A stretch of DNA of 64,000 bases from Escherichia coli (GCF_024700885.2 NZ_CP117016.1); one strand, 5' to 3'; positions 28,347 through 34,409 are shown, counted from the first letter of the stretch. The notes: generated by a model from the letters alone, not told the origin. Numbers and translations: made by a program.

Positions 28347-28844
28347 TCACCGCAGCATCGTCATCAGCTCCATGGGAGAACGATGCTGCTTTATCAGATC
28401 ACGCATCACCCGCATATGCGGTGCGGAGTAAGAATAAAACGCCTGATAGCCCGCACATAGCACGCTGTCTGGCGTCTCCTCCCGAGCGTGCGGACACAGC
28501 CGATGCCAGTCGCACGTTTGGCAGTCACGGCGCGAGTGCGGGTTTTCGCTGCCACACCATTTTTGTAGGGTGGCGTCAAAAAGCTCAATCGAAATACGAC
28601 TGATATCTGCCCGCACCCAACACTCAAACAGGGTAATTAAAAATTTCCCCCACAGCTCTGCTGTCACCGAAGCGGCCGTCAGATCGCCCCGGTCATCAAA
28701 TTCAAGATGGGGAATGAGCTGTACGGAGCGGATACCCCGTTGTTTGAAATTGTGATAAAAATCGGCAGGTTGCAGAGCATCCTTGTACTCTACAACCAGT
28801 TTATGCCTGTCCTCTTCAGCATCAATGACCTGACTTCCTGTCAT
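28347..28844 (-). CDS. yidF: YidF, C-terminal (SPASM-like) remnant of an anaerobic sulfatase-maturating enzyme
   Basis: 165 aa. It carries the Cys cluster CGSENPHSRRDCQTCDWHRLCPHA...LCAGY but no N-terminal CxxxCxxC radical-SAM motif. It matches K-12 YidF as remembered. Confidence 0.85.
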   Translation of the reverse strand: MTGSQVIDAEEDRHKLVVEYKDALQPADFYHNFKQRGIRSVQLIPHLEFDDRGDLTAASVTAELWGKFLITLFECWVRADISRISIELFDATLQKWCGSENPHSRRDCQTCDWHRLCPHAREETPDSVLCAGYQAFYSYSAPHMRVMRDLIKQHRSPMELMTMLR

Positions 28845-29203
28845 GCGACTCTCTCAATAAATACGATAAGTTGATGTATATGCGTTACAGCAAACAGTAT
28901 TGCGAGAGATAACACCGCGAGGGAGATCAAAAATTTGTCACGGACTACGTGAAATTGGGAAAAATCGCTATTCGTGACATCCATTAAATTGCGATTACGG
29001 GTGTAGTGCCAGAGGATCAGCGCCACGATGGTGAGAATGCCAATCGAAATCCAGAATAACATGCCCGCCTGGTGCCAGTTGTGTTTGATAGCCAACGCCA
29101 TCAACGCGCCGTAGCCCAGCATGGTACGAAACCACGCCAGTGATGTACGCTCCGGCTGCAGCCCTGGGTCGGCAATGCGTCTGGCTTTGCGGCTATCCGG
29201 CAT
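28841..29203 (-). CDS. yidG: Inner membrane protein YidG (DUF202)
   Basis: 120 aa. RTSLAWFRTMLG motif, 3 TM segments, overlaps yidF by 4 nt. Confidence 0.88.
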   Translation of the reverse strand: MPDSRKARRIADPGLQPERTSLAWFRTMLGYGALMALAIKHNWHQAGMLFWISIGILTIVALILWHYTRNRNLMDVTNSDFSQFHVVRDKFLISLAVLSLAILFAVTHIHQLIVFIERVA

Positions 29204-29540
29204 ACAACACCAGTCCCATGACGATCACCGCCACGATCATCAATATTAAACTGATGATTAATAAGCTGTTGGTATAGGGCAGGTCCTCTTTCAGACGCAT
29301 CGCTTTTTCATTGCGTAACCAGCGCAAGTAGCCATACATCGCTAACCCGCCGGAAAACAGACACAACAACAACGCCAGCAGTTCGCGAATGACGGGCGTG
29401 GCGAAATCTGGCGCAAGTTGGTCAAGCCCAACCCCCGCCGCCAGAAATCCTAGTGCGGTACGGATCCACGCCAGAAAAGTACGCTCATTAGCCAGCGAGA
29501 AGCGGTAATCGGGCGCTTCTCCGAGGCGGGAAATTTTCAT
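29193..29540 (-). CDS. yidH: Inner membrane protein YidH (DUF202)
   Basis: 115 aa. ANERTFLAWIRTALG motif, overlaps yidG. Confidence 0.88.
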   Translation of the reverse strand: MKISRLGEAPDYRFSLANERTFLAWIRTALGFLAAGVGLDQLAPDFATPVIRELLALLLCLFSGGLAMYGYLRWLRNEKAMRLKEDLPYTNSLLIISLILMIVAVIVMGLVLYAG

Positions 29541-29647
29541 TGTTGCTCCTTTGCAATTTCACTAACGCTCTATCTTTAGCGATTTTTTTAAGAATTTCGT
29601 CCGCCCGTTTCCTGATATGCTTTTGCCATCCGCTACAAGGAGGTCAG

Positions 29648-31637: not shown

Positions 31638-33349
31638 AGGCTATCCTTCGCGTCGGGAGTAAAGGTTACGGCTGGGTCGTGACGATGCCGCCAGCTGTCA
31701 AAAATCAGGTAGACAATCACTACGGCGGCAATGAAATAACTGATCATCGCTAACCAGCGCGTACCGTAGCCGCCGAATTCAGCCAGCCCGGCATAGACGC
31801 CAATCATCGCGAACAGGATACCCATTGACGCGATCTTGACGTTTTTCCACGGTTTCATGTCCACCGCAAACGCATCTTTGAAGGTGAACGGCGTGGCGCG
31901 CGGTTTGATAAAACCGATCACCAGCATCACTACCACGTTGATACAGAACGTACAGGCCAGCACATAGAGGAAATGGAAGTCGAACTTCACCAGATAGTTG
32001 ATGGTGATGTAGCTGATTATGCCAATCCCCATCGCCACTTTTGCCGCCAGCGCCGGAATGCGCGGGAAGAAAAAGCCCATAATGATGATGGTAACCAGCG
32101 GCACGTTGTAAATACCGTTGAGCTGTTTCATCCAGCTATACAGCCCCTGCGGCGCGTTGGCGATCCACGGCGCGACCAGCACCGAAACGATGGCGATAAA
32201 GAAACCAAATTTGCGCCCGACGGTGACCAGCTGCTGCGGCTCGGCATTCTGGTTAATGATGCGACGGTAAATACCCATACTGAATAACGTACTGGCGCTA
32301 TTCAGAAAGCCGTTGAAGGTACTGATCACCGCACCAAATAACACCGCGCCGAAGAAACCCACCAGTGGCACTGGCAGAACGTTATTGACCAGCGTCGGGT
32401 AGGCCATGTCGGCTTTCGGTAGATCCTGATACAGATGAAACGCAATCAACCCTGGCAGTACCAGTACCAGCGGGTCGAGCATTTTCAGCACCGCCGTTAA
32501 CAGCGCCCCCTTTTGCCCTTCCGCCAGGCTTTTTGACGCCAGCGTGCGTTGCACGATGCCCTGATTTGTACACCAGTAAAAGGTGTTCACCAGAATTAAA
32601 CCGGTAAATGCCGCGCCAATCGGCAAGGGATCGGTCGGGCCACCGACTGAGTTTAATTTCTCGGCGTGAACGGTGGTAATTTGCTCAATGCCCTGCGTAA
32701 AGCTGCCCTTGCCCATCGCGATCAGGCCAAATACCGGTACCATCAACCCGCCAATAACCAGCCCAATACCGTTAATGGAGTCCGCCACTGCCATTGCGCG
32801 CAGTCCGCCGATTACCGCATACAAAATTCCCGCCAGACCAAGCAAAATAACCAGTAGCCAGATAGCCGCGCCGTGGGAAATTTGTAACGATTCCCCGACG
32901 TGAAACAGGCTGTTGAGCGCCAACGCGCCGGAGTAGAGAACAATCGGCAGAAAGCAGACGCCGGTGGCAATGAGGAAGCAGAAGTCGATGATAATACGCG
33001 TCGTTTTATCATAACGTTCCTCCAGAAAATCGGGGATGGTGGCAATGCCGCGCTTCAGATAGCGCGGTAAAAAGATTAGCGCGAGGAAGATCAGCGTCAC
33101 CGCTGAAGTCACTTCCCAGCCCATCACCGACATGCCGCTTTTGTAGGCCTGCCCGGAAAGGCCGACCAGTTGTTCCGTGGAAAGGTTGGTTAACATTAAC
33201 GAAGCGGCAATAACCGGCGCTTTTAGTGATCGTCCGGCAAGAAAATAGCCTTGTTGCGATCCGGTATCTGCTTTACGGACCTTCCACCAGGTGATGACCG
33301 CCACCAGCAGCGTAAAACCGACAAAACTCAAGATTTGTAACGAATTCAT
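31634..33349 (-). CDS. yidK: Sodium:solute symporter family transporter YidK
   Basis: 571 aa, polytopic SSS-like protein. It overlaps yidJ by 4 nt and matches K-12 YidK. Confidence 0.9.
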   Translation of the reverse strand: MNSLQILSFVGFTLLVAVITWWKVRKADTGSQQGYFLAGRSLKAPVIAASLMLTNLSTEQLVGLSGQAYKSGMSVMGWEVTSAVTLIFLALIFLPRYLKRGIATIPDFLEERYDKTTRIIIDFCFLIATGVCFLPIVLYSGALALNSLFHVGESLQISHGAAIWLLVILLGLAGILYAVIGGLRAMAVADSINGIGLVIGGLMVPVFGLIAMGKGSFTQGIEQITTVHAEKLNSVGGPTDPLPIGAAFTGLILVNTFYWCTNQGIVQRTLASKSLAEGQKGALLTAVLKMLDPLVLVLPGLIAFHLYQDLPKADMAYPTLVNNVLPVPLVGFFGAVLFGAVISTFNGFLNSASTLFSMGIYRRIINQNAEPQQLVTVGRKFGFFIAIVSVLVAPWIANAPQGLYSWMKQLNGIYNVPLVTIIIMGFFFPRIPALAAKVAMGIGIISYITINYLVKFDFHFLYVLACTFCINVVVMLVIGFIKPRATPFTFKDAFAVDMKPWKNVKIASMGILFAMIGVYAGLAEFGGYGTRWLAMISYFIAAVVIVYLIFDSWRHRHDPAVTFTPDAKDSL

Positions 33350-33515
33350 CTCATAGCCCTTATTTATGTTTATGTCCCGGACGCATGAATATAGGGAGAG
33401 GTAAAATGCGTCGGGTCAGGCAGTCAGATTCTTAAAATACAAACATCGTATCCCTGAACGGATTGTTTTCTGTTAAGTTCAGGTTGTGAGCATAATTCGC
33501 CGGAGGGATATTAAA

Positions 33516-34409
33516 ATGAATGGAAAATTGCAAAGTTCGGATGTAAAAAACGAAACTCCGTACAATATTCCCTTATTGATTAACGAAAATGTGATCTCCA
33601 GCGGAATTTCTCTGATCTCGCTCTGGCATACCTACGCCGACGAGCATTATCGGGTGATCTGGCCGCGGGACAAGAAGAAACCGCTTATCGCCAACTCATG
33701 GGTTGCGGTGTATACCGTACAAGGATGTGGGAAAATTATTTTAAAGAATGGCGAACAAATAACTCTGCATGGCAACTGTATTATATTTTTAAAGCCAATG
33801 GATATTCACTCTTATCACTGTGAAGGTTTAGTCTGGGAACAGTACTGGATGGAATTTACCCCCACCAGTATGATGGATATTCCCGTCGGTCAGCAAAGCG
33901 TTATTTATAATGGCGAAGTTTATAATCAGGAACTCACCGAAGTTGCTGAATTAATTACTTCACCAGAAGAAATAAAAAATAATCTGGCAGTCGCTTTTCT
34001 GACGAAAATTATTTATCAGTGGATTTGTCTTATGTACTCAGACGGTAAAAAAGATCCACAACGGCGGCAAATTGAAAAACTAATTGCCACTTTACATGCC
34101 AGTCTGCAACAACGCTGGAGCGTAGCTGATATGGCTGCCACGATCCCCTGTAGCGAAGCCTGGTTGCGTCGTCTGTTTTTACGCTATACCGGCAAGACGC
34201 CGAAAGAATATTACCTCGATGCACGTCTGGATCTGGCGCTATCGCTATTAAAGCAACAAGGGAACTCGGTTGGCGAAGTCGCTGATACGCTCAACTTCTT
34301 CGACTCCTTTCATTTCAGCAAAGCCTTTAAACATAAATTTGGTTATGCGCCGTCAACTGTGCTGAAGAATACGGACCAGCACCCAACGGATGCCAGTCCA
34401 CACAATTAA
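33516..34409 (+). CDS. yidL: AraC-family transcriptional regulator YidL
   Basis: ORF 33486..34409. The K-12 N-terminus [22 protein letters not shown] starts at 33516. The C-terminal AraC HTH is [21 protein letters not shown]...[19 protein letters not shown]. Confidence 0.9.

Follow-up and report, generated by a model that had tools for sequence, protein, structure and literature searches.

The closest described relatives of the gene considered here are the anaerobic sulfatase-maturating enzymes (anSMEs) of the AslB/AtsB/ChuR type, among them the solved anSMEcpe (PDB 4K36-4K39), for which the cysteine ligands of the first and second auxiliary clusters (Aux I and Aux II) have been assigned and the Aux II cluster has been proposed to pass electrons to the protein surface (PMC5715301). 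In Twitch-domain proteins the first half of the domain is kept and CX2CX5CX3C is missing (PMC5715301); these proteins are active radical-SAM enzymes. In E. coli, the pairs aslA-aslB and ydeN-ydeM each place a sulfatase gene beside an anSME-type gene, and in Bacteroides S1 sulfatase loci occur with the anSME ChuR. AslA and YdeN are periplasmic, and Cys-type S1 sulfatases require formylglycine. We analyzed the E. coli locus yidF-yidG-yidH / yidI / yidJ-yidK / yidL, which occupies a 6063-bp stretch of the chromosome (positions 28347-34409 of a window of 64,000 nucleotides from GCF_024700885.2, NZ_CP117016.1) and combines a Cys-type sulfatase, YidJ, with a short anSME-like protein, YidF. We found that yidF descends from a full-length AslB-like anSME gene, that in-frame internal deletions have removed its catalytic parts on more than one occasion, and that the remaining module is under purifying selection.

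Relative to the anSMEs from which it descends, YidF has lost the motif of the radical-SAM (RS) cluster, some 140 barrel residues and, with the Aux I ligands, the first half of SPASM. The ancestral locus paired yidJ with a full-length yidF, as in aslA-aslB and ydeN-ydeM, but unlike the sulfatases of those pairs YidJ lacks a signal peptide and its gene is coupled to that of an importer, and two DUF202 genes precede the maturase remnant. YidJ resembles the enzymes of the Bacteroides loci in being a carbohydrate-type, formylglycine-dependent S1 sulfatase; it differs in being cytoplasmic, in a locus with an SSF importer and an AraC regulator. As in Twitch-domain enzymes, the SPASM-type region of YidF is reduced to one auxiliary-cluster site, but it is the second half, with the Aux II site, that is kept, and there is no radical-SAM core. 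Like pseudoenzymes, YidF has lost its catalytic machinery and remains under purifying selection; most of the pseudoenzymes described have an intact fold, whereas in YidF the catalytic domain has been excised in frame, repeatedly, down to about 165 amino acids. The cluster is known but uncharacterized in E. coli. No functional study of yidF, yidJ or yidK was found in the published literature, and a literature match for “YidF” was rejected as a typographical error for YdiF. The comparative reading of YidF given here, comprising a full-length orthologue in sister genera, repeated in-frame stripping and a remaining module under selection, appears to be new.

YidF of E. coli has no radical-SAM site

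Neither the YidF protein nor the frame upstream of it contains a C...C..C arrangement, in agreement with the preliminary description of this stretch, in which the CxxxCxxC motif was reported missing, and the N-terminal motif of anSMEs is absent from every frame of the whole window. An upstream in-frame extension restoring the radical-SAM domain, which that description considered would overturn its view, does not exist: a stop codon lies three codons before the yidF ATG. A hidden extension or a split gene was thus ruled out by this stop, by the upstream DNA being occupied by yidG, and by the absence of the motif from the window.

Profile searches recovered no Pfam match to YidF even at E=10, including to the radical-SAM barrel (PF04055). 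Against the anSME models the scores are far below the cutoffs (75.5 bits for TIGR03942, cutoff 349.45; 70.9 bits for NF010308, cutoff 484), and the TIGR03942 match is split into two separate stretches. Aligned with anSMEcpe (PDB 4K36), YidF residues 27-95 correspond to residues 175-246 and residues 105-152 to residues 314-370, which amounts to an N-terminal loss relative to this enzyme and an internal loss of about 65 residues. Three cysteines of the CX2CX5CX3C region and the distal cysteine are retained, equivalents of Cys255, Cys261 and Cys276 in the first SPASM half are not, and the seven-cysteine set of SPASM (PF13186) is therefore incomplete. An AlphaFold2 model built from 21 sequences is compact (predicted local distance difference test, pLDDT, 77; predicted TM-score, pTM, 0.76), with confidence high at residues 11-100 and 130-150 and low in the Cys loop and with predicted helices at 130-152 and 157-164, and its only significant fold matches in the PDB are anSMEcpe chains. 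Judged by its sequence, YidF is not an anSME and cannot perform radical-SAM chemistry, and formation of formylglycine is predicted to be absent, because it has lost the motif of the RS cluster, the greater part of the barrel and the Aux I site. The earlier view that YidF derives from an anSME and is no longer a radical-SAM maturase is thereby borne out, and the RefSeq name “radical SAM protein” misdescribes a y-gene product that has no radical-SAM site and is encoded by nearly every E. coli genome.

A full-length ancestor and two in-frame internal deletions

To collect relatives of YidF, we performed a protein search followed by an alignment-based scan of one genome per species. The protein search yielded YidF-like proteins of 162-195 amino acids in Escherichia, Citrobacter, Superficieibacter, Klebsiella, Leclercia and Silvania, and the scan yielded 74 syntenic loci, with yidH-yidG always directly upstream, emrD usually downstream, and yidL/yidK-yidJ often further upstream. 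Intact yidF open reading frames (ORFs; n=69, all in Enterobacteriaceae) fell into 33 long forms (350-376 amino acids) and 36 short or intermediate forms. The long forms are complete anSMEs with the full set of SPASM cysteines and are 50% identical to K-12 AslB; 31 of the 33 carry CX3CX2C, and 31 of the 33 start like MTGCQVMAKPASSRCNLDCRYCFY, with an ATG that overlaps the yidG stop.

Set against the 370-aa orthologue of Citrobacter sedlakii, E. coli YidF consists of residues 1-10, 153-243, 303-317 and 322-370. It begins with MTGSQV at the ancestral start codon, which still overlaps the yidG stop (ATGA). The first in-frame deletion, of approximately residues 11-152, took CX3CX2C and most of the radical-SAM barrel (about 140 residues), leaving of the barrel its final beta/alpha units (residues 153-243); the second, of approximately residues 244-302, took the first SPASM half including the Aux I ligands, so that only the second half is left (303-317 and 322-370). 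The preliminary description had called the protein decapitated and had seen in it only the C-terminal Cys-rich part of an anSME. The second SPASM half is indeed there, but residues 1-10 and 153-243 are kept as well, the head is retained, and the alignment with AslB-type enzymes that was suggested to define the truncation maps it as two internal gaps and not as an N-terminal cut. Descent from the long anSMEs is evident in the position after yidG, the N-terminus, 25 conserved positions and the tail, all of which the short form has in common with them. Of the alternative that YidF might be a complete protein of a different family, the first part holds to the extent that the short form is conserved and selected; the family itself is clearly anSME-derived.

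The reduction recurred

Short YidF is conserved across at least 6 genera. A nearly identical architecture (residues 1-10, about 153-245 and about 298-370) is found in the Citrobacter freundii complex, Salmonella arizonae and diarizonae, Superficieibacter, Klebsiella/Raoultella, Silvania and some Leclercia. Intermediates include forms of 188-192 amino acids in C. amalonaticus, in which CX3CX2C is still present, and others of 220 and 249 amino acids. There are also “dead” relatives of about 310 amino acids, known as metagenome and genome proteins, in which the N-terminal domain is still there, its CX3CX2C and GGE motifs degenerate, and the first SPASM half is lost; these could represent the first step of the series. 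Since the SPASM deletion is common to all reduced forms, it was probably the earliest step, after which a core that had become useless would have been lost in stages.

In a distance tree built on shared columns, the short forms of Leclercia and Silvania nest with the long forms of Leclercia, whose 5-residue gap (“D-----NPES”) they have, and a single origin of the short allele is ruled out for them. In a tree of flanking proteins, long alleles are scattered among short ones within both Leclercia and Citrobacter. It follows from this nesting and interspersion that the reduction arose at least twice. For Escherichia, Salmonella and Citrobacter, one old short allele with later exchange is possible.

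The remnant is under purifying selection

We measured selection as pairwise Nei-Gojobori ratios of nonsynonymous to synonymous substitution (dN/dS). For short yidF the ratio is 0.12-0.30 among Escherichia species, 0.19-0.34 within E. coli, 0.08-0.31 in Citrobacter, 0.25-0.39 in Klebsiella/Raoultella and 0.27-0.52 in Silvania/Leclercia; for full-length yidF beside yidJK it is 0.05-0.13, and for Kosakonia, where yidJK is missing, 0.10-0.33. By region, the Escherichia gene gives 0.13 for codons 1-25, 0.15 for codons 26-99, 0.31 for codons 100-131 and 0.05 for codons 132-165, with a bootstrap confidence interval (CI) of 0.07-0.50 for codons 1-131. Among 16 short representatives, 32 positions are at least 95% conserved, and 25 of these 32 are common to the long forms.

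The tail SAPHMRVMRDLIKQHRSPMELM is invariant at many positions, each of which is encoded by three to six synonymous codons across 68 loci; with the amino acids fixed and synonymous change free, the constraint acts on the protein. A cause at the DNA or RNA level, such as the 3' end of the convergent emrD or a terminator, was ruled out, since the tail is equally conserved where emrD lies 5 kb away and synonymous sites vary. C108, C111 and C130 are invariant across all short and long forms, and every short YidF has the CxxC, at least one further cysteine and a distal C-x-G-Y; the set corresponds to the Aux II ligands C317, C320, C326 and C348 of anSMEcpe. We favor a reading of YidF as a small non-catalytic protein that would bind a metal through four cysteines or a [4Fe-4S] cluster.

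The gene was found in 5420 of 5426 complete E. coli genomes. The allele of the window is an uncommon one, with at least 99% identity in 30 of the 5420 genomes and only 90-95% identity in 830, and the diversity of yidF in E. coli exceeds that of the neighboring genes.

A maintained sulfatase and its symporter

YidJ matches the Sulfatase profile (PF00884) at 2.2e-71 over the full profile length from residue 4 to 341, and also matches PF16347; because the domain starts at residue 4, there is no room for a signal peptide and the enzyme is taken to be cytoplasmic. The C-T-P-A-R motif that had identified it as a Cys-type sulfatase is present as C52-T-P-A-R-A-G-L-F-T-G. Its nearest solved structures are carbohydrate sulfatases (about 1e-45), which by sequence are too distant to name a substrate. 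YidK, described before as a sodium:solute symporter coupled to yidJ, has an SSF domain (PF00474, 2.5e-50), scores 854.8 bits against NF007790 (cutoff 401) and has vSGLT (2xq2, 2e-53) and SGLT1 as best structures, and the yidK TGA overlaps the yidJ ATG as ATGA. With carbohydrate sulfatases and vSGLT/SGLT1 as nearest solved relatives, the sulfated sugar suggested earlier as substrate is plausible.

Both YidJ and YidK remain strongly constrained. Within Escherichia the dN/dS of yidJ is 0.04-0.07, which indicates a working gene. As YidF is predicted to be unable to supply formylglycine and YidJ is maintained, YidJ is presumably matured by something else, as had been supposed. The title of a 2007 work by Benjdia et al., as cited in PMC6189696, suggests a third maturation system in E. 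coli.

YidL and expression of the locus

YidL was described as an AraC regulator and has the corresponding domains, namely the C-terminal helix-turn-helix (PF12833, 2e-17; PF00165, 4e-17) and an N-terminal ligand domain (PF02311, 6e-7). The mapped yidL transcription start coincides with a GTG at 33486 (PMC3950696); given this and the RefSeq annotation, the coding sequence most likely starts at 33516 and not at that GTG. The yidL promoter is repressed by H-NS and needs BglJ-RcsB or loss of hns/stpA (PMC3950696), so that the locus looks cryptic in the laboratory, and the suggestion that the cluster is silent fits such conditions. A scan of the yidK/yidL region (33350-33515) for consensus promoters gave nothing above chance.

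Proposed history of the locus and competing explanations

On balance we think it probable that the locus is an H-NS-silenced sulfatase module with an in-frame-stripped yet selected YidF and a sulfatase matured in trans. Under YidL control, this catabolic module would import a sulfated small sugar (a substrate class suggested by the relatives of YidJ and YidK) through the Na+ symporter YidK, and cytoplasmic YidJ would then desulfate it. The third gene of the ancestral yidH-yidG-yidF encoded a dedicated maturase of 370 amino acids, AslB-like and of the radical-SAM/SPASM type. Two in-frame deletions in the Escherichia lineage stripped this enzyme of the SAM/RS-cluster core and of the Aux I half of SPASM; its start codon, the final barrel units, the Aux II site (CxxC…C…C) and the helices at the C-terminus were left. 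AslB, YdeM or a further E. coli system may now mature YidJ in trans. YidF is pseudoenzyme-like and not a neutral pseudogene, and its selected role would most likely reside in its C-terminal module. More tentatively, and with less confidence than in this account as a whole, the C-terminal module of this anSME lineage (final barrel units, Aux II site and C-terminal helices) might have a second function that does not depend on radical-SAM chemistry and for which enterobacteria would repeatedly have excised the catalytic domain and kept a mini-protein of about 165 amino acids; such a mini-protein might carry a single Fe-S cluster and act with YidH/YidG or with the sulfatase.

Several observations weigh against the proposed account, and some of them would be expected if YidF were instead a decaying, functionless pseudogene fragment on its way to loss. 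The dN/dS of short yidF is two- to fourfold above that of full-length forms, the protein has no Pfam match, and its constraint is lowest in the Cys-rich linker (0.31); the middle cysteine that survives varies by lineage, and the third Cys ligand is not positionally fixed. Relatives show all stages, namely full, degenerate full-length, intermediate, short, frameshifted (E. albertii NBRC 107761, Leclercia adecarboxylata NCTC13032 and at least one E. coli genome, T309.Ta3) and absent. In Salmonella enterica and Enterobacter kobei, yidF is entirely missing beside an intact yidHG, with the next convergent gene 8-28 nt after yidG, so that yidF is dispensable and not an obligate partner of YidGH. Short forms are also more often without adjacent yidJK (26 of 36 loci, as against 15 of 33 for long forms, both raw counts over related genomes). 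In addition, the trees are simple neighbor-joining distance trees of short, fast-evolving sequences, and aslB and ydeM lie outside the window, their products being candidate maturases only. We nevertheless consider decay unlikely, and the dead stump implied by the preliminary description does not agree with a short form that is found in at least 6 genera, arose more than once and is under purifying selection. In every region the ratio lies far under 1, a value that the bootstrap CIs exclude, and the same holds in five short-form clades; the motif is lost in 34 of the 36 short and intermediate ORFs, and yet the ancestral start and stop are in frame in all of them although each has undergone at least 2 large deletions; synonymous sites are saturated in the invariant tail, and yidF is a core gene of E. 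coli. Decay of the whole cluster, silent in E. coli and with the state of YidF irrelevant, is less credible still and would be a rather surprising outcome. The H-NS repression of yidL, the coverage below 80% in about 6% of genomes, and the shorter yidJ annotation (1227 nt) and missing yidI of sequence type 131 (ST131) could be read in this way. Against them stand the low dN/dS of yidJ, the conservation across genera of the yidJ/yidK overlap and of full-length ORFs, and the presence of at least 80% of the cluster in 5100 of 5421 genomes.

Two further explanations accept selection on YidF and place it elsewhere. One assigns its role to the YidH-YidG membrane module, as a cytoplasmic subunit docking through the tail: yidH-yidG-yidF is translationally coupled and stays together at 74 of 74 loci with or without yidJK (a co-occurrence biased by these loci having been found through YidF), YidH is extremely conserved, and the tail is the most conserved segment of YidF in long and short forms alike. 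However, S. enterica and E. kobei have deleted yidF cleanly and retained yidHG, and AslB, which has no YidGH partner, carries a similarly placed tail of different sequence, and we regard this role as improbable. The other makes YidF an accessory of sulfatase maturation that would either relay electrons through an Aux II-type site or bind the sulfatase as an escort, in partnership with AslB, YdeM or another oxidase. The ligands of Aux II are kept, and yidF stays beside yidJK in Escherichia, S. arizonae and Superficieibacter; but most short-form loci are without adjacent yidJK, the peptide-binding barrel and Aux I are gone, and such an accessory would be without precedent, which leaves it a very small chance of being correct. 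The favored account, an enzyme stripped in frame and a remnant selected for a non-catalytic role, keeps what the earlier interpretation had right (anSME descent, loss of maturase function, another maturation route, silence in the laboratory) and drops the decapitation and the dead stump.

The comparison identifies the true ancestral partner of YidJ as a full-length maturase, which Citrobacter, Leclercia, Kluyvera and others still encode and which can be used directly for complementing E. coli and for producing active YidJ. It also sharpens the question of how E. coli matures its Cys-type sulfatases, as here the dedicated enzyme is provably gone and the sulfatase maintained. The series from full-length through dead full-length, intermediate and minimal to absent offers natural material for studying how an enzyme becomes a pseudoenzyme or small protein. 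If the more tentative reading, a second function of the C-terminal module, is true, YidF would be the first radical-SAM maturase that convergent stripping of domains has turned into a new family of small proteins.

The YidG/YidH pair

YidH is 83-100% identical in amino acids across enterobacterial genera, the best 120 matches of a homologue search all being at least 83% identical, and yidH has a dN/dS of 0.00-0.07 within Escherichia; yidG is syntenic in 74 of 74 loci. The two genes persist with or without yidF or yidJK, and such conservation is unusual for a protein of unknown function like YidH. YidH was a candidate in a screen for D-alanine exporters, in which no transport was shown. For YidH/YidG, a role as an anion (sulfate?) channel is conceivable by analogy with the VTC polyphosphate channel of eukaryotes, which has DUF202 as its transmembrane domain.

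Gene order, conservation and neighboring genes

The stretch is E. coli chromosome, 100% identical to several E. coli genomes, and was matched in 5421 of 5426 complete genomes. RefSeq gives the order emrD, yidF, yidG, yidH, yidI, yidJ, yidK, yidL, a 6-phospho-alpha-glucosidase gene and a phosphotransferase system (PTS) gene; all seven yid genes reported in the preliminary description are present, both as ORFs and in RefSeq (Table 1), and its observations on genes, motifs and domains stand apart from the N-terminal cut ascribed to YidF.

Table 1. Features of the yidF-yidL locus, with window coordinates
Feature	Coordinates	Strand	Basis
yidF; 165-aa non-catalytic remnant of an AslB-like anSME	28347-28844	-	ORF, RefSeq (“radical SAM protein”)
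YidF residues 132-165, C-terminal helical tail GYQAFYSYSAPHMRVMRDLIKQHRSPMELMTMLR, most conserved part	28350-28451	-	dN/dS, codon usage, predicted helices
YidF residues 108-130, C108-x2-C111-x5-C117-x12-C130, Aux II site remnant	28455-28523	-	Invariant C108, C111, C130
YidF second deletion junction (approximate), ancestor residues ~244-302 lost	28530-28560	-	Alignments; Cys255/261/276 equivalents absent
YidF kept ancestral N-terminus (MTGSQV...) and first deletion junction (approximate)	28812-28844	-	Long orthologues; ATGA overlap
yidG; DUF202 inner-membrane protein, translationally coupled to yidF	28841-29203	-	PF02656, 9e-12; ATGA overlap with yidF
yidH; DUF202 (YidH family) inner-membrane protein, first gene of yidHGF	29193-29540	-	PF02656, 4e-19
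yidI; small predicted membrane protein, variably present	29648-30097	+	RefSeq coding sequence
yidJ; Cys-type S1 sulfatase, Cys52 in CTPAR	30144-31637	-	PF00884, PF16347, motif
yidK; SGLT-like sodium:solute symporter, stop overlaps yidJ start	31634-33349	-	PF00474, NF007790, ATGA overlap
Divergent yidK/yidL control region including the yidL promoter	33350-33515	.	PMC3950696
yidL; AraC/XylS-family regulator	33516-34409	+	PF12833, PF00165, PF02311; RefSeq start

YidI has no family match in Pfam or in curated family models, and its gene is missing or undetected at many related loci. In ST131, where yidI is absent, yidH comes 60 nt after the shortened yidJ, and from this layout the cluster is remodelled in phylogroup B2.

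The emrD and yidF genes converge at 28339-28347 with stop codons 7 nt apart, so that any terminators must sit within coding sequence. In a 2026 preprint, a “yidF terminator” serves as the model of an intrinsic terminator. Our simple terminator scan gave no canonical site at the emrD/yidF junction, terminator and promoter scans there gave nothing above chance, and Rfam gave nothing in the cluster. Upstream of emrD, the istR Hfq-binding antitoxin RNA (Rfam RF01400, 150 bits) was detected at 26351-26480 (-), adjoining the annotated tisB toxin and ysdE.

On the other side, a gene for an intact 6-phospho-alpha-glucosidase of 440 amino acids and the adjoining PTS EIICB gene abut yidL (34406-37578, -). 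In K-12 the glv genes are disrupted. In many related genera without yidJK-yidL, the same 6-phospho-alpha-glucosidase gene lies directly beside yidH.

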